Shown here in pieces: positions 2,255-40,792 of a stretch of 64,000 bases of DNA (position 1 is its first letter; each line of letters starts with the position of its first letter). The DNA comes from Gemmatimonadaceae bacterium. Lineage in GTDB: Bacteria; Gemmatimonadota; Gemmatimonadetes; Gemmatimonadales; Gemmatimonadaceae. The translations under genes were made by a program, and so were the position numbers. Below the pieces are notes generated by a model, which was given only the letters and a program-made list of their open reading frames with translations, had not been told where the DNA came from and made no database searches. Location of the stretch: positions 17,755-81,754 of the forward strand of contig JBBDYC010000014.1 of the NCBI GenBank assembly GCA_040901985.1. Direction: 5' to 3'.

Positions 2255-2956
2255 TCACGAATGCCAGAGCGCCTGCAGGCCGAACGAAGCTCGTTTCCCG
2301 TAGGTCGCCGCGGGCGGGCGGTCCGTCACGTCAATGCAGTTCGGAGTCGCCCCGCACGCGCCGCCGCCCTGGTCCTCGCGATACCAGCGCAGCTCAGCCG
2401 TGAGGACGAAGTAGCACAGGAAGCCAAGCTTCGCGCCGACCGCCGTGTTGAAGCTGTAGTCGTACGAGTCGAGCGCCTCGTACTGATACGAGTCGTCGGT
2501 GAGATCGAACTCCTCGAACTCGCCCTGCGTGTACCAGCCGGGCGCGACGGTCAAGAACGGAACGAGCGCGACAGCGCCGGGAAGCGCGTAGCCGACCGTG
2601 AAATCGACCGAGTGGAAGGTGATCTGGCGCTCGGTGACGCGCCAATCGGTAAACAGTGCCGTCGCGCGATCGTATCCGACCTGCACGAGCCATTTATCGT
2701 CGCCCAGGAGCCACGAGCCGCCGACGCCGAGTGCGATGCCGTCCGCCTCGCTTCGTACCGGCGGGCTGTCCACGCCCCCCGGATCGGTCGGGCGATAGCT
2801 CACCGGCACGTCGGAGAGCGTAGCGCGCTGGTACGAGAGGTAAATCCCCTTGTGAAAGACGGCACGTGCGACCGAAGCACGCTCCTGCGCCGTCGCCCTG
2901 CCGGCAGCCACGACGTGCACAAGCAGTAGCAGCGCAATTGCGTTGCGTCGGGACAT
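2255..2956 (-). CDS. Secreted, probable outer-membrane beta-barrel protein
   Basis: Signal peptide ending ATA-Q, alternating aromatic beta-strands, C-terminal strand ASFGLQALW. Confidence 0.6.
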   Translation of the reverse strand: MSRRNAIALLLLVHVVAAGRATAQERASVARAVFHKGIYLSYQRATLSDVPVSYRPTDPGGVDSPPVRSEADGIALGVGGSWLLGDDKWLVQVGYDRATALFTDWRVTERQITFHSVDFTVGYALPGAVALVPFLTVAPGWYTQGEFEEFDLTDDSYQYEALDSYDYSFNTAVGAKLGFLCYFVLTAELRWYREDQGGGACGATPNCIDVTDRPPAATYGKRASFGLQALWHS

Positions 2957-3186: not shown

Positions 3187-4224
3187 TTACGTCTTCACCG
3201 CCGTCCAGGTCAGATTCACGGTGCTACTACACCCCGAGAGGCTCCAGTTGAACGTCAGGTTGCCGCTGGCGCTCGTGCCTCCAATGAACGTGCCAGTGAT
3301 GGTCCATCCAAGCGGTGAACCGCTCACGGTCCGATTGATCGTCCCCGACGCAATGCTGAACGGCGTGTTGAAGGTGGTCGTGGTGTTGCCCGTGACTCCG
3401 CACGCCGGAATGCGGAATCCCAGGTAGATCTGCGTCACCGCGTTGTCGACGACGGTGATCCGGACAGTGCTGTCTTGCGATGAGGTCCCGACCCACGTGC
3501 CGCTCAGATCGGGGGTCACATTCAGCGTGACGGTGACGGTGCGCGGCGTGTTGGTTGCGCCCGGGGCGGCTATGGTGATGGTTCCAGTGTAGGTGCCGGC
3601 CGCGAGGCCCGTGGTGTTTGCGGTGACCGTCACGTTCGACGGTGCGCTGCCGCTCCCGGCCGAGAGCGAAAGCCAGGCCTGATCGTCGCCCGCCGTCCAG
3701 TTGAGCGTTCCCCCGCCGGTGTTCGAAATCGCGAGTTCCTGCGCGGCGGGTGACGCCGCGCCGACCATCCCCGAAAACGTCATCGCTGTCGTCGAAACGC
3801 CAATCGTCGATGGAGGCTCAACGGTCAGGGTGACGTTCACCACCTGCGGCGAGTTGGTCGCGGTAGAGGAGGAGATTGCGACAGCGGCGTTGTACGTGCC
3901 CGCCGTCAATCCGGTGGTATTCGCGCTGACGGTGAGCGAAGTACCGGAGCCGCTCGCCGGCGCTAGGCCGACCCAAGCTTGGTTGGCCGTCGCGACCCAC
4001 TCGAGCGTCGAGCCGCCAGTATTGGTAATGGTGACGACCTGCGAAGCCGGGCTGACTCCGTCGGCAACACCGGTGAAGACGAGCGCTGCCACCGAAAGCG
4101 AGATCGTCGGCGGAGGACCCGAGGTGCCGGTGGGTTGATCACACGCGACCGCAAACGCGAGCGGCAGGATCCGACCGGCGCCGAGCAGGGCGCGGATCCT
4201 CCGCCAAGTGACCGGGCGGGTCAT
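3187..4224 (-). CDS. Lipoprotein with two BACON/Ig-like domains
   Basis: Lipobox-like LAFAVAC. Two repeats of ITNTGG.TL.W.A...Q.W...S.G....VT.NTTGL.AGTY. Start MTRPVTW overlaps the upstream stop. Confidence 0.8.
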   Translation of the reverse strand: MTRPVTWRRIRALLGAGRILPLAFAVACDQPTGTSGPPPTISLSVAALVFTGVADGVSPASQVVTITNTGGSTLEWVATANQAWVGLAPASGSGTSLTVSANTTGLTAGTYNAAVAISSSTATNSPQVVNVTLTVEPPSTIGVSTTAMTFSGMVGAASPAAQELAISNTGGGTLNWTAGDDQAWLSLSAGSGSAPSNVTVTANTTGLAAGTYTGTITIAAPGATNTPRTVTVTLNVTPDLSGTWVGTSSQDSTVRITVVDNAVTQIYLGFRIPACGVTGNTTTTFNTPFSIASGTINRTVSGSPLGWTITGTFIGGTSASGNLTFNWSLSGCSSTVNLTWTAVKT

Positions 4225-4784
4225 CACCAGGACCTCCCGAGCGACAGGTTGAGCATCCAGACGAGATAGCGCTCGCTGCCGGCACTTCCCGAGCCGTCCT
4301 TCCACGTGTCGTCCGAGCCGAAGGTGCCGAGCAACCCGCCGAGGACAATCGAGAATCCATTTGGCTTGATCCACCGGTGGCCGAACGTTCCGCCGTACCC
4401 CACGATCTGCGAGTAGAACGTCTGGTTATCGGTCCTCCCGACCTCCACGTGGGGGCCGACGTACCATCGCCGGAGCCGGCTGGCCCCAGGGTAGTAGCGC
4501 CACGTGCCGTAGACGGTCCAGCCCGACTCGATTCCGTCGTTGATCAGGTGGGAGACCAGGCCAAACGCCGGCAGTCGTACGCCTCCGCCGAGGGAGGCCG
4601 CGTCGCTGATCGCGCGCTCGTACTCAATGTTCGGTCCGAGCTGCAGCGGGCCCAGGATGTTCGTGGACAGTGCGGACGAAACCGGCGTATGCCCGGCCGA
4701 CTGCGCAGCGATCTTGGCAAACGGACATCCGAGACAAACAGCGATGGCTAAAGCGGTCGCGAGCGGTCGGGACGATCGTGACAA
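4224..4784 (-). CDS. Small outer-membrane beta-barrel protein (DUF3575-like)
   Basis: TTG start preceded by GGAG, signal peptide, NIEYERAI / WRYYPG / WYVGP / GHRW strands, C-terminal LNLSLGRSW. Confidence 0.65.
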   Translation of the reverse strand: MSRSSRPLATALAIAVCLGCPFAKIAAQSAGHTPVSSALSTNILGPLQLGPNIEYERAISDAASLGGGVRLPAFGLVSHLINDGIESGWTVYGTWRYYPGASRLRRWYVGPHVEVGRTDNQTFYSQIVGYGGTFGHRWIKPNGFSIVLGGLLGTFGSDDTWKDGSGSAGSERYLVWMLNLSLGRSW

Positions 4785-4812
4785 GGCGCTCTCCGGATGA
4801 GGGGTCCCTCCC

Positions 4813-4840
4813 TCATCGCGGAACCGCCGCAATTGTGACC
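4813..4840 (-). promoter_or_regulatory. Putative ECF sigma promoter GGTCAC-N14-CGCGATGA, copy B
   Basis: Same two boxes and spacing as the copy at 8866-8893. Lies about 30 nt upstream of the beta-barrel start codon. Confidence 0.55.
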
Positions 4841-7800
4841 GGGGCAGCCCCGTTCGCGAACAGGACATAGGGTGCCCAGTCGATAGCAGAGACCCCGGCG
4901 GCCCGGAGCGCCAGTTTGGCGCCGCGAACGGCTGCGGCGGGCGATTCGCCCGCCACGAGGCGCGGGTAGAACTCGGCCGCAAAGTCGGCGGAATGCTCGC
5001 CGACCGACCAAAGCGTGGCGACCGTCGCGGCCGCGCCGGCGGCGAGGAAGCTCCGGCTCAGGCTGAGCACCCCCTCGCCCTCCAGCGTGCGTCCGGCCGC
5101 CGTCTCGCACGCGCTGAGAACGACGAGGGCGCCGGCGGAGTTCAACCGCGCGATCTCGGTCGGCGCAAGGTCTCCGTCGTGGCCCGCGTCGGCTGCGAGG
5201 AGCACGCGCGCGTGTTCAGGCCGCGCGGCACTCGCCTCGGCGTGTGTGGCAAAGTGAAGGACCGAAGCGCTCGGGGCGACGGCTCGCAGCGCAGCAACGG
5301 TCGCTCGAGCGCCCTCGAACACGTGCAGCCGTCCTTCGGGAACCGCCCGCCGCATTATCGCCAACTCGCGCGCTGCGCCGGGGGCATCTCGTGCTGTTCC
5401 CGGAGCGAGGGTGAGGATCACCCCAGGTCGCAGTTGCGGGCGCGTTGCTCCGAGCGGCGTCATGGCTTGGGTGATTTCGAATCGGTCCAGAAGCGCGAGC
5501 GTCGCCTCGGTCCTCGGCGCGGCGCGCGTCGGATCGCTGAACGGAAGCGCGTCGAAAGGGACGAGGAAGAGCGCACCGTCCGGCACGATCATAACCCGCT
5601 CGATTCCCGTGAGCAGCGGGATGACCGGCGTGATGATTGCCTCCGAGAGCGCGCGCGCGGCCTCCACGTCGAATCGCGTCCGAGAGCGGTCAAGCATGGT
5701 ACCGACCCGCGCGCGCATCCCGCGTGCAAGGCGCCCGATCGCGGCCCGGATCGAGTCCGCGGGCGTATCGAGTCGCGTAACAGACGCTCCCTGAGGTCCG
5801 ATGACCAACACCGCCGCCACTGTGTCGAGCAGGACGAAGTCGAGGATCGCCTCTTCCGCCGAGGGACGCGGCAGGTGCACCCCGGTGGGTCTTCCCAGCT
5901 TCGAGTCGCCGGACTCGCTGGAGCGCAGTGCACGCGCCTTTCGCCGTTCGGACCAACGCAGGAAATGCGCCGCAGCGCCTGGCCGGTCACGTTCCGCGAT
6001 AATTGCCGCAAGTGCGCCATCGTAGACGCGACGCTGAGCCGACCGGAAGCCCGCGCGATCGGGGTCGAGGGCAATCCCCTCGGCGACAGAATCGGAGAGA
6101 TCGGCCGCGCGAGCGAACATATCGAGTGCAGCGTCAATTTCCCCGGCGCTTGCGTGGAGTTCCGCGGCGAGTCGTCGGGCCGAGATGCGGAGCCGCGCGT
6201 CGCCGCCGCGCTCGATTTCCGCGTGCACGACCGCCGCGCGCCGCCGCGCGCTCGACCCGCTGCGGCCGCTGCCGCCGCGCGCCTGAGCCAACGCGCTGAA
6301 CAGCTCCGCACGTTGCGCCGTCCCAATCTCCCCCACGCTCTGCGCAGCCACACGCGCGCTGTCGGCCAGGCGGTGACCCGCACTCGAATGACCGAGCGCG
6401 AGCTCGACCTCCGCCAGATCCAACGTCAGTTGCGCCCACGCGGCTGTTTGCCCCCGCGCCGTCGTCTCCCGCCGCGCCGCGTCGAAGGCGTCGCGCGCCT
6501 CACCGAACTGGCGGGCCTCGAGAAGCACCGTCGGGAGCAACGCCGCCGATTCCGGGCGCCCGATGGTGCCCCGGCGCTGGTCGTGTCTCCGCGCGAGCCG
6601 CGTCGCTTCGGCGAAGTCGCCCTCGGCAAGCGCCAGCCGCGTCAGCCCCTCAAGCACTCTCGCCGTCTCCTCCTCGACGCCAATGCTGCGGAGGTAATAC
6701 GCGTGCGCGCGGTCGAGGTCGCCGCGCGACTCGTAGTACTCGGCGGCGTAGTTAAACTGCGTGCCGAGCGAGTCGATATCGGCAAGCATCCGCCCGAAGT
6801 GGACCGCCGCCGAGTCCGATTCGCCCCTCGCCTGCAGGAATCGACCGTAGTCGCGCGCGCTCATCATCCTCACCTGATCGAGCCCCCCCATCGCCGCGTA
6901 GTGGACGAAGCGTCCTCCCGCGTCGCGTGCATCGGCGTGCCGCCCCAGGGCCTCGAAGAGGTGCAGAAGATTGTGTTCGACCTCCTTGGCGATCTTCGGG
7001 GAGTCGGCGCGCGCAACGGCGACGCGTGCGCGGACGAGCGAGGACTCCGCGGCCGCCGTCGCGCCGCGCTTGACTTGCACGCGCCCCAGGCGCATCTGCG
7101 CTTCCGCCACGAGCGCGTCGTCGCCCAGCAGCCCCGCGAGGCCGGCAACGCGCTTCCAGACCGCCTCGGCGCGGCCGAGATTCCCCGTATTCAACTCGTG
7201 GAGGCCCACGTCAACCAACACCAAAGCCGCGCCGAGACGGTCGCCTTCGTCGGCCGCGGCGCGGCGCGCGGCATTTGCACTGTCAATCATCGCCGCCGAA
7301 TGGCGTAGTTCGTCTGGTGTAGCGCCCCGCGCGTGGCGGTCGAACGCGAGTCCGTGGACCCCAATGGCGAGCCAATAGCGCGCCCGGAAGCCGGGCCTCG
7401 ACCACGCTGGGTCGGTGCGCGCGCGCGCCTCGGCCTCAACCGCGCGCCCGTGGTCGCCCAGGGCGTGCCAGGCCCCGGCCTCGAGTGCGTAGGAGGCGGC
7501 GCGATGCAACGGGTGATGTCGGAGGTCCTGATGCTCACGTGCCCACCGTTGCTCGGCGCGCCACTGCTCGAGCGAGGTCGTGGGCGCCACGCAGTGCAGC
7601 GCGATGCGCGGTGCGTCCGCCAGCCGTACGCGGAAGCGGATCATCGCGTCATTCACAGGCGGACACCCCGACAGGGTCGAACGGATCACGAGGGAGAACA
7701 TCAACGCGCAGTCGTTGGCGGCCGACGTTGCGTCGCCCACAGACACCGGCTCCGGCGCATATCCGCGCGCGGTTCGCGCGATCTGACCGAGACAATGGCG

Positions 7801-8112
7801 AAGCTTCGGTGAAGTGGCGCGCGCGGCGATCGAGTCGAATTGCGCGAGCGCGCGACTTGAGATATCCGTCCGCAACGCTGCGTAGTACTCGAAGAGAGGA
7901 GGCAGCCAGGTCGGATCGCTGCGAAGGGCGGCCTCGTATTCGTCCCGTGCGACCGCCAACTGCAGATCGAGTTCGGCCTCGAGCGCGCGCACAAAGTGCG
8001 CCCGGGCTTCGGGGCTCCCGGCTGAGGCGTCACGGCGAAGCAACTGGGCCGTGACCGCGCCCAACACGAACACCACTGCCGCACCTGCGGCGATAACCCC
8101 GCTCCTCGTCAC
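4813..8112 (-). CDS. Membrane-anchored TPR-CHAT (caspase-like, clan CD) protease
   Basis: N-terminal hydrophobic helix and TPR-like helical repeats. CHAT motifs IVPDGALFLVPFDAL, LHFATHA (His at 5242-5244), LVVLSACETA (Cys at 5107-5109), VATLWSV and WAPYVLF. Confidence 0.9.
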   Translation of the reverse strand: MTRSGVIAAGAAVVFVLGAVTAQLLRRDASAGSPEARAHFVRALEAELDLQLAVARDEYEAALRSDPTWLPPLFEYYAALRTDISSRALAQFDSIAARATSPKLRHCLGQIARTARGYAPEPVSVGDATSAANDCALMFSLVIRSTLSGCPPVNDAMIRFRVRLADAPRIALHCVAPTTSLEQWRAEQRWAREHQDLRHHPLHRAASYALEAGAWHALGDHGRAVEAEARARTDPAWSRPGFRARYWLAIGVHGLAFDRHARGATPDELRHSAAMIDSANAARRAAADEGDRLGAALVLVDVGLHELNTGNLGRAEAVWKRVAGLAGLLGDDALVAEAQMRLGRVQVKRGATAAAESSLVRARVAVARADSPKIAKEVEHNLLHLFEALGRHADARDAGGRFVHYAAMGGLDQVRMMSARDYGRFLQARGESDSAAVHFGRMLADIDSLGTQFNYAAEYYESRGDLDRAHAYYLRSIGVEEETARVLEGLTRLALAEGDFAEATRLARRHDQRRGTIGRPESAALLPTVLLEARQFGEARDAFDAARRETTARGQTAAWAQLTLDLAEVELALGHSSAGHRLADSARVAAQSVGEIGTAQRAELFSALAQARGGSGRSGSSARRRAAVVHAEIERGGDARLRISARRLAAELHASAGEIDAALDMFARAADLSDSVAEGIALDPDRAGFRSAQRRVYDGALAAIIAERDRPGAAAHFLRWSERRKARALRSSESGDSKLGRPTGVHLPRPSAEEAILDFVLLDTVAAVLVIGPQGASVTRLDTPADSIRAAIGRLARGMRARVGTMLDRSRTRFDVEAARALSEAIITPVIPLLTGIERVMIVPDGALFLVPFDALPFSDPTRAAPRTEATLALLDRFEITQAMTPLGATRPQLRPGVILTLAPGTARDAPGAARELAIMRRAVPEGRLHVFEGARATVAALRAVAPSASVLHFATHAEASAARPEHARVLLAADAGHDGDLAPTEIARLNSAGALVVLSACETAAGRTLEGEGVLSLSRSFLAAGAAATVATLWSVGEHSADFAAEFYPRLVAGESPAAAVRGAKLALRAAGVSAIDWAPYVLFANGAAPVTIAAVPR

Positions 8113-8858
8113 CGCGCCCCCCGAATGCTGTCCGCCAGCGCACGAAGAGGGACGAACGCCGCGCTCGATCCGCGCCGAGGTGGCTCGAGAACCGCCAACG
8201 CCGAGTCCGCGCGCCCGAGTCGGAGCCACGCCTTCGCTCCGAGCCGCCGCGCGTCCACCTCGAACGGGCCGCCGATTTCCGACCACGCGATCTCCAAGGC
8301 AGGCAGGGCCCGAGCGGGGTCGCCGGTCAGCAGCCGAGAGGCTCCGAGGAAGAAGCTCACTCCGGGCGTCGAGTCTTCGACGGCGGCCTCCGTCAACCTG
8401 GCCGCCGCGCGAGCGTAGTCCCCGCGCAGGTATGCCTCCATCCCGCGGTCAATCAGCGCGGCGGTCGCAGACGCCGGGCGGCCACCGCGCACCGGCTGCG
8501 GGTCGAACAACGGCGCCGTCACCACGTGCAGGGGATCATAGGACGGCCGGAGCGTCCACGGGAGCGACCGCGGGTAGAGCATCAGGGCGACGCTCGCGGC
8601 CACAAGCGTTACGGCGCCAACGACAAGTCCACGTCGCAAGCGCCGAGGTCCTGGCGCCCGTCCAGCAATAAGCGCCCGCTCGAGCGAGGGGCGCGTCGGA
8701 ATGGTCCGGAGCGCGGCGCGCACCCCGGCGCCGAGCCGCACCCGCGCGCGGCACTCGGCGCAACCGAGCAGATGGATCTCGAACGAGTCGAGTTGATCGG
8801 AAGTCAGGGAACCCGCCACATAGGCGGGGGCCTCATCATCAGCGCGCAGGCAGTTCAC
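8109..8858 (-). CDS. Zinc-finger (zf-HC2) transmembrane anti-sigma factor with C-terminal TPR
   Basis: HLLGCAEC (HxxxCxxC), TM segment GLVVGAVTLVAASVALML, TPR-like C-terminus. Overlaps the sigma and CHAT genes by 4 nt each. Confidence 0.82.
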   Translation of the reverse strand: MNCLRADDEAPAYVAGSLTSDQLDSFEIHLLGCAECRARVRLGAGVRAALRTIPTRPSLERALIAGRAPGPRRLRRGLVVGAVTLVAASVALMLYPRSLPWTLRPSYDPLHVVTAPLFDPQPVRGGRPASATAALIDRGMEAYLRGDYARAAARLTEAAVEDSTPGVSFFLGASRLLTGDPARALPALEIAWSEIGGPFEVDARRLGAKAWLRLGRADSALAVLEPPRRGSSAAFVPLRALADSIRGAR

Positions 8859-9403
8859 GAGGCTTTCATCGCGTTACGTGCGGGAACGTGACCATCGGGG
8901 GCGGCCACGGACAGGGCTTCGCGAAGGCGGCCAAGCGCGCGCGACTTGCGCTTGCGGAGGCGCGCGGCCGGCTCGCCGAGCGCGCGCGCGATGCTGCCGA
9001 TCCGTTCGCCATCCACGAAGCAGCGGTGGAGGAGTTCGCGATCAGCGGGCTCAAGTGTCCTGAGCGCGTCGGCGAGTTTCGCGCGCTCTTCTTGGCTCAC
9101 GAGCAATTCGAGCGCATTTGCCCCAGGTTCTGGCGCGTCCACACCGAGTGCGACGACGCGCTGCCGGGCGCGGAGCACGTCCACAATGACGTGCCTGACA
9201 ATTCCGTGCGCCACTGGAGCGATCTCGTGATCCGGCAACGGAGGGCCACGACGCAGGCGATCGAGGAGCCGCGCCACGCACTCCTGCGCCGCGTCGCGCG
9301 CGTCCTCGAGCTCCCCGAGTCGCCGCAGCGCGATGAGCTCCAACCCTTCGCGGAGCTCCGCAAGTCTACTGTCTGGGAACGTCTCTGGCAGCAGGCGCGG
9401 CAA
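8855..9403 (-). CDS. ECF-type RNA polymerase sigma factor
   Basis: Region 2 (DARDAAQE, HGIVRHVIVDVLRAR) and region 4 (L..LEPADRELL...IARALG....RKRKSRALGRLRE). GAGGAG precedes the TTG start. Confidence 0.88.
   Translation of the reverse strand: MPRLLPETFPDSRLAELREGLELIALRRLGELEDARDAAQECVARLLDRLRRGPPLPDHEIAPVAHGIVRHVIVDVLRARQRVVALGVDAPEPGANALELLVSQEERAKLADALRTLEPADRELLHRCFVDGERIGSIARALGEPAARLRKRKSRALGRLREALSVAAPDGHVPARNAMKAS
8866..8893 (-). promoter_or_regulatory. Putative ECF sigma promoter GGTCAC-N14-CGCGATGA, copy A
   Basis: Ends 7 nt upstream of the anti-sigma GTG at 8858. Matches copy B in both boxes and spacing. Confidence 0.55.
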
Positions 9404-9622
9404 CCCAAGCTCCTCGACCGGATGCCCATAGCTTAACGCTCCCGAGCGTGCCCCGCGCTCGGGACAGGAAATTCAATCGGGGTCGGTCGAGTATACGGTG
9501 TGATGCCCCGCCGCGCGAGCACCGGCGGGCGGGCGACGGGGCGACGGCGGAGGGGCCGTTCGGGCGGGTGCCACAGAGCGAGTGAAACTGGCGTTCCTGC
9601 CGCACCCAGGGCACGTTTCGCC

Positions 9623-10405
9623 ATGGGACTCCGTTCGTTCTTCCCGCTCGCGGCGAGCCTGCTCGTCGCATCTTGCGGACCAGCCGGGACCGGACCCGGC
9701 GGGTCCGGCCCGTCAGTTCCAACTCTCGCGAGCGTCACGCCCGCGTCGGGGAACACCGGCGCAACGGTCAACGTGACAGTGGGGGGCACCGGGTTCGACG
9801 CCGGCGCCATCGTCACGATCAGCGGCAGCCACGTCGCGGTCTCCGCGGTCACCGTGCCCTCTGCCACCCAGGCCACCGCCACGTTCACCATTGATGCGGT
9901 GGCGGCCACCGGCGCCCGCAACGTGTCGGTCACCACCGCCGAGGGGACCAGCAATACGGCGACCTTCACCATCAACGCCGCGGCGTTCGCCGTGGACATT
10001 GATCTGAACCGCGGCACCGTCCGATTCCCCAACTCCTACCAGAACTGGCAGATCGGCGGGGGCTCAGCCACCAACTTCGTCGCCTACCCGCAGGGTTGGA
10101 CCGTGGGCGGGGGCTCGGCCAGCAACTTCGTGCCGGTGCCGCCGGGTTGGTCCGTGGGAGGAGGCTCGGCGACCAACTTCGTCGCGTACCCCGGCAACGG
10201 GGTCACGACCCTCGAACTCAAGTTCGACGACCCGGGGTGGCTCGCGTTCTTCCAGGCACTCCAGGCGGGTGGCTCGATGACCGAACTTCAGCTCGCCGAT
10301 GTCGTCACGTACGTGTATTTCACGTACCGGCCCGAGCACATCAATGGCAGCGGCAACACCGCGACGACCCACTCGCAGGGAGACGCGGCGACCGGCGTGT
10401 GGTGA
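9623..10405 (+). CDS. Lipoprotein with IPT/TIG-like domain and three 17-aa repeats
   Basis: Lipobox LVASC, PTLASVTPASG...V.VGGTGF (IPT-like), then W.(I/V)GGGSA.NFV..P three times. Confidence 0.75.
   Translation: MGLRSFFPLAASLLVASCGPAGTGPGGSGPSVPTLASVTPASGNTGATVNVTVGGTGFDAGAIVTISGSHVAVSAVTVPSATQATATFTIDAVAATGARNVSVTTAEGTSNTATFTINAAAFAVDIDLNRGTVRFPNSYQNWQIGGGSATNFVAYPQGWTVGGGSASNFVPVPPGWSVGGGSATNFVAYPGNGVTTLELKFDDPGWLAFFQALQAGGSMTELQLADVVTYVYFTYRPEHINGSGNTATTHSQGDAATGVW
10046..10198 (+). repeat. Three tandem 51-nt coding repeats
   Basis: TGG codons at 10046, 10097 and 10148 each begin a WxxGGGSAxNFVxxP unit. Confidence 0.9.
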
Positions 10406-39749: not shown

Positions 39750-40792
39750 GCCGCGCCAAGGGCCGCGCCAAGCCGCTCACCTACGCGAGCGCCGGCGTTG
39801 ACATTGACGCGGCGGAGGACTCCAAGCAGCGGATCAGGCGGCTGGTGGAGTCCACGTTCACCGCGGGGGCGCGCGGCGCCTTTGGCGGGTTCGGCGGGAT
39901 GTTCCGCGTCCCCGAGGGCGCGCGGAAACCGCTTCTCGTGGCGAGCGCCGACGGCGTCGGGACCAAGATCAAGGTCGCGATCGAGGCCAACCGACACGAC
40001 ACGATCGGCCACTGTCTCGTGAACCACTGCGTCAACGACATTCTCGTGCAGGGCGCCAAGCCGCTCTTCTTTCTCGACTACGTCGCGTTCGGGAAACTCA
40101 TCCCGTCGGTTGTCGAGGGAATCGTCGCCGGCGTGGCGGCCGGATGCCGCGAGAACGGCGCCTCGCTGATCGGTGGGGAGACGGCGGAGATGCCCGGCGT
40201 TTATACGCCGCCCGACTACGACCTTGCCGGATTCATCGTCGGCTGGGTCGAGGAGGACGAGGTCATCACGCCGGCGGGGGTGCGCGACGGCGACGTGCTG
40301 GTCGGACTCGGCAGCACAGGACTCCACACCAACGGCTATTCGCTGGCCAGGCGGATCGTCACCGAGCGGCTGCAGCTGGGCCCCGAGGACCCGTTCCCCG
40401 ACGCCGGGGGTAGGAGCGTTGCCGATGTCCTCTTGGCCGTGCACCGGTCGTATCTTTCGCTCCTCGGCGGCTCCCTCCGGCGGGTTCACGCGATGGCACA
40501 CATCACCGGGGGCGGGATTCCGGGGAACCTCGACCGGGCGCTCCCCCCCAACCTCGACGCGGTGGTCGAGACCGCGGCGTGGAAGATACCCCCTACCTTC
40601 CGGGTGCTGGAGGCGGCGGGTGGAGTGGCGCGGTCCGAGATGTACCGCGCGTTCAATATGGGCGTAGGAATGGTTGTGATTACGGACACATCGGGTGCCG
40701 TGCATATTCGTGACATTGCGTCGCAGGCCGGCGTCGCCAATTGGGTCATCGGCCACACCCGCCCTGGATCGGGTCGGGTTCACCTCGTCTAA
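39746..40792 (+). CDS. purM: Phosphoribosylformylglycinamidine cyclo-ligase
   Basis: YASAGVDID, DGVGTK, GGETAEMPG, HTNGYSL, HITGGG and FNMGVG. Confidence 0.96.
   Translation: MSRAKGRAKPLTYASAGVDIDAAEDSKQRIRRLVESTFTAGARGAFGGFGGMFRVPEGARKPLLVASADGVGTKIKVAIEANRHDTIGHCLVNHCVNDILVQGAKPLFFLDYVAFGKLIPSVVEGIVAGVAAGCRENGASLIGGETAEMPGVYTPPDYDLAGFIVGWVEEDEVITPAGVRDGDVLVGLGSTGLHTNGYSLARRIVTERLQLGPEDPFPDAGGRSVADVLLAVHRSYLSLLGGSLRRVHAMAHITGGGIPGNLDRALPPNLDAVVETAAWKIPPTFRVLEAAGGVARSEMYRAFNMGVGMVVITDTSGAVHIRDIASQAGVANWVIGHTRPGSGRVHLV

Follow-up and report, generated by a model that had tools for sequence, protein, structure and literature searches.

A split DdvA-like sigma, anti-sigma and TPR-CHAT locus in a Gemmatimonadaceae bacterium: a candidate trans-envelope switch with an invariant linker arginine

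Organization of the locus

A 64,000-nucleotide (nt) stretch of DNA from a Gemmatimonadaceae bacterium (assembly GCA_040901985.1, contig JBBDYC010000014.1, positions 17,755 to 81,754), referred to here as the window, carries on its reverse strand a triad of genes for a sigma factor of the extracytoplasmic function (ECF) type, a membrane anti-sigma factor and a TPR-CHAT protein. The sigma gene (8855-9403) has a TTG start and encodes 182 amino acids (aa); its product matches Sigma70_r4 and TIGR02937 above the cut-off and Sigma70_r2 slightly below it (Pfam, NCBIfam). The anti-sigma gene (8109-8858, 249 aa) and the TPR-CHAT gene (4813-8112, 1099 aa) follow. All three were assigned from open reading frames (ORFs) and family profiles, the last two also from structural models. 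These coordinates, and 4-nt overlaps within the triad, had been given in a preliminary description of this DNA and are confirmed, with GTGA at 8855-8858 (sigma/anti-sigma) and at 8109-8112 (anti-sigma/CHAT). Because the anti-sigma gene ends with its own stop codon (8109-8111) and the CHAT gene lies in a different frame, two separate polypeptides are encoded.

Next on the same strand are genes for a small DUF3575-like outer-membrane beta-barrel (4224-4799, starting at 4799 or 4784) and for a lipoprotein with two BACON_2 domains (3187-4227), which also overlap by GTGA, at 4224-4227. The DUF3575 match is below the cut-off (E 0.001) and is backed by Atlas at 0.97, and the two BACON_2 stretches were recognized by Pfam (E 9e-14). 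The identity of this gene pair, as first described, likewise stands. A divergent gene on the forward strand (9623-10405), assigned by profiles to a TIG/CoaZ-repeat lipoprotein, is a possible further member of the locus.

The anti-sigma factor and the TPR-CHAT protein

The anti-sigma protein combines a zinc site, a transmembrane (TM) segment, a linker and a TPR domain, in agreement with the zf-HC2, TM and TPR composition proposed earlier. Its zf-HC2 domain scores above the cut-off (E 1e-5), with the CHCC zinc ligands C3, H29, C33 and C36; a hydrophobic segment at residues 77-95 (hydropathy 2.19) is immediately preceded by the basic RRLRR; and the helical TPR domain (131-248) matches TPR_19 slightly below the cut-off (E 1e-4). 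By the positive-inside rule, a single TM segment with an N-in/C-out orientation is predicted. Profile comparison also matches RslA. The adjoining ECF sigma factor is presumably the cognate partner, which the anti-sigma factor would bind.

In the TPR-CHAT protein, the CHAT domain is recognized by Pfam with an E value of 1e-44, and the structural model (predicted local distance difference test, pLDDT, 84) has a helix at the N-terminus, followed by a long solenoid of helices and a domain of caspase-like fold. Its best Foldseek matches are Csx29 (top), separase and DdvA. The His-Cys dyad, already noted as intact, consists of H957 (codon 5242-5244) and C1002 (codon 5107-5109), which lie 45 residues apart, as do H862 and C907 of DdvA; judged by this spacing, H953, the first histidine of the HFATHA motif, is not the catalytic one. 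C1002 and E916 (codon 5365-5367) are invariant in 90/90 aligned CHATs, and the catalytic histidine is kept in 78/90. E916 may be the acidic S1 residue, as judged from clan CD structures. With its caspase-like fold and dyad, the window CHAT is a putative protease.

The outer parts of both proteins are predicted to lie outside the inner membrane, in keeping with the trans-envelope arrangement put forward in the preliminary description. This prediction combines the positive-inside rule for the anti-sigma factor with the N-terminal segments of CHATs found in triads: a hydrophobic segment is present in 23 of the 29 proteins with a callable start, a lipobox in 11, and 2 more proteins have no callable start. 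In the window protein, the hydrophobic helix spans residues 6-24, as expected from the earlier observation of such a helix at the N-terminus.

One triad subfamily (L042, L044, L055, L119, L131, L141 and L147; L numbers denote loci) has lipoprotein CHATs and, where the sigma gene ends, another motif, G[A/C]AAC...CGGG, sometimes situated 3' of the sigma stop codon. In two other triads (L050:6980-12280 and L051:4115-9324) the product of the middle gene has no zinc motif and carries a helical outer domain, with T-R-G-G about 40 residues past the TM segment; their CHATs start with a TM segment and a DdvA-like linker.

Conservation of the triad

Both CHAT genes of the host genome lie inside sigma/anti-sigma/CHAT triads. 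In the second triad (L001:9616-14086; G000:C2), the CHAT, anti-sigma and sigma proteins are 34%, 34% and 43% identical, respectively, to those of the window in their aligned parts. A single-sequence locus search of genome contigs returned no relative; an 8-sequence alignment profile succeeded, and neighbour genes in the relative loci were assigned by profile and hydropathy. When loci in assembled genomes were found via the anti-sigma factor, full-length TPR-type anti-sigmas stood between sigma and CHAT in 8/8 cases (L151-153, L249-253). A set of 20 further loci contained 17 triads, 2 loci ending at a contig edge and 1 without CHAT. This gene-neighbourhood survey, together with the second triad, supports treating the triad as a conserved unit.

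More broadly, CHAT is present in 91 of the 151 genomes of the family sample (a tally that includes one genome flagged as unpublished), but by the detection used, a zinc-finger/TM anti-sigma gene adjoins only 15 of 65 held-out CHAT genes of the family. Named relatives comprise two Gemmatimonadota records and one Miltoncostaeaceae record. The anti-sigma profile recovered 612 clusters at E 1e-30 or better (protein profile only, without genomic context), in view of which the split design seems to be much more frequent than the fused one represented by DdvA. The 150 relatives of the anti-sigma protein that were aligned measure 214-270 aa, that is, they have no fused CHAT.

It is very improbable that the three genes are mere neighbours without a functional link. 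Such a view could appeal to the patchiness of the triad, as the anti-sigma profile was unmatched in 5/5 same-genus genomes, and to the variation of the genes downstream of triads. However, the 8/8 anti-sigma-selected loci and 17/20 loci of the second set are triads, the genes are coupled by GTGA, and a fused form exists; chance adjacency is largely refuted by conservation and fusion.

Beside the second triad, a divergent Big_2-repeat gene stands behind the promoter motif described below, and a transposase-like ORF interrupts the Big_2 region (L001:15503-16459).

Relation to DdvA and other CHAT systems

The closest counterpart of the window locus is the DdvA–DdvS system of Myxococcus xanthus. 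According to the available sections of PMC11506125 (PDB 8rot, 8rw5), DdvA unites in one chain a CHCC zinc domain, a TM segment, a flexible linker, a scaffold and a periplasmic TPR-CHAT part. Its bulky outer domain blocks RseP, which removes DdvA once that domain is gone. The same sections put forward, as an unproven proposal, that CHAT cuts DdvA in trans near V129-P140, the stretch nearest the dyad, before RseP acts; they call a CHAT-based site-1 step unprecedented, with validation awaiting the signal. The statement in the preliminary description that no mechanism had been worked out for a membrane-anchored form needs correction in this respect.

A search for longer forms of the anti-sigma protein returned 5 weak matches, one of which, P0012, joins zf-HC2 and CHAT in a single protein. 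The anti-sigma profile covers the first 255 aa of P0012 from end to end (probability 97%), P0012 aligns over its full length to DdvA (PDB 8rot, E 9e-78), and the window CHAT profile matches only the protease domain of P0012. Because the anti-sigma protein matches the N-terminal part of P0012 and P0012 matches DdvA, the window locus can be described as a split DdvA-like system. Both systems have an ECF sigma factor, a CHCC zinc domain, one TM segment, an outer linker with a TPR stem, and a TPR-CHAT part whose His and Cys are 45 residues apart. Their promoter style is also alike, with GTAA-n16-CGT reported for DdvS (PMC6061681, in the part available) and GTCAC-N16-CGAY here. In contrast to DdvA, the anti-sigma factor (249 aa) and the TPR-CHAT protein (1099 aa, with its own N-terminal export helix) are encoded by separate genes; the linker arginine is invariant here, whereas DdvA has Q/M; and the likely targets are surface proteins, whereas DdvA, like some of its homologues, controls an island of the cyclic-oligonucleotide-based anti-phage signalling system (CBASS) and CRISPR. 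The named relatives of the split form are mostly Gemmatimonadota, while the fused TPR-CHAT anti-sigmas described in PMC11506125 were found there only in Myxococcota and one Comamonas, and are called nearly confined to myxobacteria. A DdvA-like mode of working is inferred for the window locus, which departs from the single-chain design.

DdvA is also a closer comparison than the Csx29/Csx30 pair chosen in the preliminary description. In Craspase, as presented in the available part of PMC10028731, the TPR-CHAT protein Csx29 likewise cleaves an anti-sigma factor, Csx30, and frees CASP-sigma, and Csx29 is the top fold match of the window CHAT. Unlike the window system, Craspase is cytoplasmic and RNA-activated via Cas7-11, and Csx30 is not a zf-HC2/TM protein; the window CHAT reaches 14 bits against the Csx29 model NF041237, with a cut-off of 300. 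The host genome, 99.97% complete, contains no Cas1 and no CRISPR-like array (CBASS and Cas7-11 were not searched for directly), as the earlier proposal of a CRISPR-independent system would have it. Separase shares the helical solenoid and caspase-like domain and cuts after Arg (PMC11506125, available sections), but it is eukaryotic, recognizes an ExxR motif and is controlled by securin, in contrast to the hydrophobic-R-small consensus seen here. For ECF54, the accessible text of PMC8999054 reports CHAT genes near an ECF sigma factor and proposes proteolytic control; that proposal concerns sigma factors without an anti-sigma factor, whereas the window sigma, compared by description, has a membrane anti-sigma.

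The term 'CHAT' is absent from the main text of the ECF reclassification (PMC7826278), whose supplements may describe such neighbourhoods. The available portion of the SAVED-CHAT report (bioRxiv 2023.06.23.546230), which belongs to the related CHAT literature, does not describe the split form or the Arg site. No published description of either was found in a search that did not cover subscription papers and ECF supplementary group tables. What is new here is the split DdvA-like arrangement with an invariant linker Arg; the fused DdvA switch with a proposed CHAT cut is already known.

Promoter motif and likely regulon

Two copies of GTCAC-N16-CGAT on the reverse strand are likely sigma-dependent promoters. 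One (8868-8892) falls within the 3' end of the sigma coding sequence, some 10 nt ahead of the point where the anti-sigma gene starts, and the other (4815-4839) occupies the last CHAT codons, directly before the beta-barrel and BACON genes, a position that accords with the earlier suggestion that sigma drives surface proteins. The form GTCAC-N16-CGAY is found at the sigma gene 3' end in 10 of 12 TPR-type loci inspected, another subfamily having a different motif there. In 20 new loci, the 140 nt before the anti-sigma gene contained the motif at unchanged spacing in 7, a version one base longer in 1, that other motif in 3 and neither in 9. Over 14 TPR-type loci, 23 matches were counted, compared with 1-5 when in-phase spacers were used; the motif had been derived from 10 of these sites, and 13 are left without them. 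Moreover, L151 and L153 again carry the motif behind CHAT, and the L151 lipoprotein behind it matches the last domain of the BACON protein (33%, E 1e-9). Elsewhere in the host genome it precedes genes for Big_2 and Kelch-type exported proteins. It was not found before the divergent TIG lipoprotein gene or the gene at 2255-2956. As judged from conservation, GTCAC-N16-CGAY is likely the promoter of the window sigma, and the switch seems to act on exported surface proteins of the Ig-like, Kelch and BACON kinds rather than on CRISPR or CBASS.

An apparent avoidance of the motif genome-wide (47 vs 131-139) was rejected as a codon-phase artefact, since spacers 10, 13, 16, 19 and 22 were all low. A 79-nt sequence (L272:645-723; G000:C19:3645-3723) that duplicates the divergent promoter segment of the second triad at 84% identity precedes an exported Kelch/PKD gene with no sigma gene adjacent, a possible distant regulon member, and on the same contig (L273:380-2996) the motif stands 67 nt ahead of a Kelch gene whose lipoprotein-like product has 841 aa. 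Locus L256 is a sigma/anti-sigma pair with the same motif and no CHAT gene within 8 kb downstream; its anti-sigma has a 57-aa outer part and a linker without Arg.

A candidate cut site in the anti-sigma linker

The likely cut site of the anti-sigma protein is R124 (codon 8487-8489), the candidate P1 residue of P-V-R/G. It is invariant in 150/150 TPR-type relatives with a median pairwise identity of 35%, a property shared only with H29, C33 and C36; because the profile that retrieved these relatives itself includes the site, the figure denotes conservation and not independence. The preceding residue (P2) is V in 117 and I in 18 of the 150, and the following residue (P1') is A/S/G in 122. Beyond the TPR type, an Arg also aligns in 36/36 CHAT-linked anti-sigmas whose outer domain is an unrelated one of about 110 aa, called beta-rich from its sequence pattern; it lies 11-23 residues past the TM segment. 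A two-step alignment places R124 at DdvA Q128-M131, with a three-residue register doubt, at the edge of V129-P140.

The Arg was spotted in the first loci, and the linker test was then fixed before further loci were fetched. A strict 'RG' occurs in 10 of 15 held-out linkers, against 6/45 and 1/19 in controls; shuffles of the held-out set gave a mean of 4.2, with 0/2000 reaching 10, and the adjacent segment had 5/15. In a second set, chosen independently of the motif, the count was 8/11 (shuffle mean 2.4; adjacent segment 0/11). The controls were reduced from 64 rows to 45 by dropping contig-truncated triad members and similarity-selected metagenome loci, the 19 being those with at least 4.5 kb of flank, and three held-out rows more than 1 kb from a CHAT ORF were excluded. 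The p-values of this test overstate significance because the controls form 10 clusters and the held-out proteins one family.

The catalytic histidine is replaced by Y/F/L in 12 of the 90 CHATs, which form a single clade (support 0.998; L038, L040, L047, L052, L053, L056, L095, L098, L104, L115, L133 and L137). Their Cys is invariant, and many still belong to sigma/anti-sigma triads; they are likely pseudo-proteases. Where the linked CHAT has lost its His, the anti-sigma retains the Arg in 11/11 cases, and a small P1' residue occurs in 4 of these 11 versus 22 of 23 partners of His-bearing CHATs. This contrast fits a scissile bond relaxed once; equally, the Arg can serve as a grip. A Fisher p of 4e-4 for the association of P1' with the catalytic His was discarded, as the His-lost set is one clade.

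In three loci (L039:5080-6313, L046:5674-6914 and L049:2926-3849), sigma/anti-sigma or anti-sigma genes lie downstream of CHAT or convergent with it, and the linker R-G is retained.

Proposed mechanism and its alternatives

A predicted complex of CHAT residues 256-1095 with anti-sigma residues 97-249 gave an ipSAE of 0.59 (runs 0.51, 0.73 and 0.59), the best control reaching 0.00. At least 75% of contacts are shared between the runs, and the partners have a pLDDT of at least 78. In calibration, the mark was reached by 116/157 solved pairs and 2/215 mismatched pairs; among those reaching it, 18 solved pairs and both mismatches scored 0.60 or less. The complex prediction, which the preliminary description had suggested as a check, lends weak support to an interaction, to which likeness to DdvA may contribute.

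There is a slightly better than even case that the locus is a two-protein DdvA–DdvS-type trans-envelope switch, in which CHAT would cut the anti-sigma factor after R124, an RseP-type protease would act next, and sigma would be freed. A signal, probably a protein or an envelope cue, would bind the TPR solenoid and align the CHAT dyad; the predicted periplasmic TPR-CHAT would then cut after R124. The host genome carries an M50+PDZ (RseP-type) protease gene, whose product may cut the remaining membrane stub; by analogy with DdvA, sigma release probably needs this second step. The freed sigma factor would transcribe the anti-sigma/CHAT and beta-barrel/BACON genes from the GTCAC-N16-CGAY promoters.

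Several points weigh against this proposal. CHAT cleavage of an anti-sigma factor is a proposal here and for DdvA alike, and the DdvA variants H862A and C907A behaved as wild type with the signal absent (PMC11506125, available sections). Basic residues flank both sides of the window CHAT helix and leave its own orientation ambiguous, so that the predicted orientation rests on homologues. At the cut site, DdvA has Q or M in the R124-aligned place, its nearest Arg being residue 137; where linkers are rich in Arg, an alignment program may settle on any of them, and related sequences are not independent. The broader pre-set motif occurred in 11/15 held-out linkers versus 19/45 (p 0.07) and 5/19 (p 0.014), with a shuffle p of 0.14, and in 7/11 of the second set (shuffle p 0.13); against shuffles, neither set reaches significance. 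Anti-sigma residues 111-130 are modelled as coil by AF2 with a pLDDT of 85-94; R124 may accordingly be fixed in an ordered state against the TPR domain of the same chain. The Arg can also persist without a canonical dyad, as the 11/11 partners of His-lost CHATs indicate. Regarding the promoters, the window holds 3 motif copies, the third at 40690 inside an unrelated gene, versus 2.8 expected, an absence of enrichment that leaves position and conservation to carry the argument; genome-wide, the motif is only slightly enriched near starts (6/27 versus 0-3 of 12-24 for in-phase spacers).

Some of these observations fit another role for CHAT, namely that of a receptor or clamp that grips the linker via R124 and shields it until a signal releases it and a host protease cuts first, catalysis being dispensable. 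This is unlikely, though it deserves weight: the His-lost clade keeps both the triad organization and the linker Arg while small P1' residues become rarer, the bulky domain of DdvA blocks RseP (PMC11506125, in the part available), and stable binding would account for the weak complex score just as well. Nevertheless, His loss was one event, and the window CHAT and all 10 TPR-type partners in the CHAT alignment keep His and Cys, the latter being universal in the 90 proteins. The small P1' residue tracks the intact dyad, as expected for a scissile bond, although this is one evolutionary contrast only.

Distinctly less probable is an effector role, in which sigma would induce CHAT as a protease for other exported substrates, such as surface or foreign proteins, with the anti-sigma linker serving as a securin-like inhibitor or its Arg being purely structural. 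The internal promoter would place the CHAT gene in the sigma output, just 15 of the 65 held-out family CHAT genes adjoin a zinc-finger/TM anti-sigma gene, and the model shows order around R124. Yet the Arg is retained in anti-sigmas whose outer domains are unrelated, both parts form one chain in DdvA, and the one CHAT-less pair that shares the promoter and has sufficient flank (L256, n=1) has no linker Arg.

If CHAT does act as proposed in the split DdvA-like switch, a periplasmic protease of the caspase/separase fold would join the known site-1 proteases. The split form allows enzyme and substrate to be made, mixed and mutated separately, with R124, H957/C1002 and a candidate reporter promoter already named. 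More tentatively, and with somewhat less than even confidence, such loci may represent widespread trans-envelope switches built on an exported Arg-specific caspase-like site-1 protease and a hydrophobic-Arg-small site just outside the membrane, with interchangeable outer domains, one non-cutting Arg-gripping branch, and DdvA as the fused case.

Additional observations

Located 3' of the BACON gene, window positions 2255-2956 encode a 233-aa exported protein without a family match, possibly a small beta-barrel. The divergent lipoprotein gene contains a repeat with a 51-nt period (about 10055-10182) in its C-terminal half. Upstream of the sigma gene, a 35-nt segment (9460-9494) recurs outside the window, at C14:3883-3917 of this contig, some 23 kb away.

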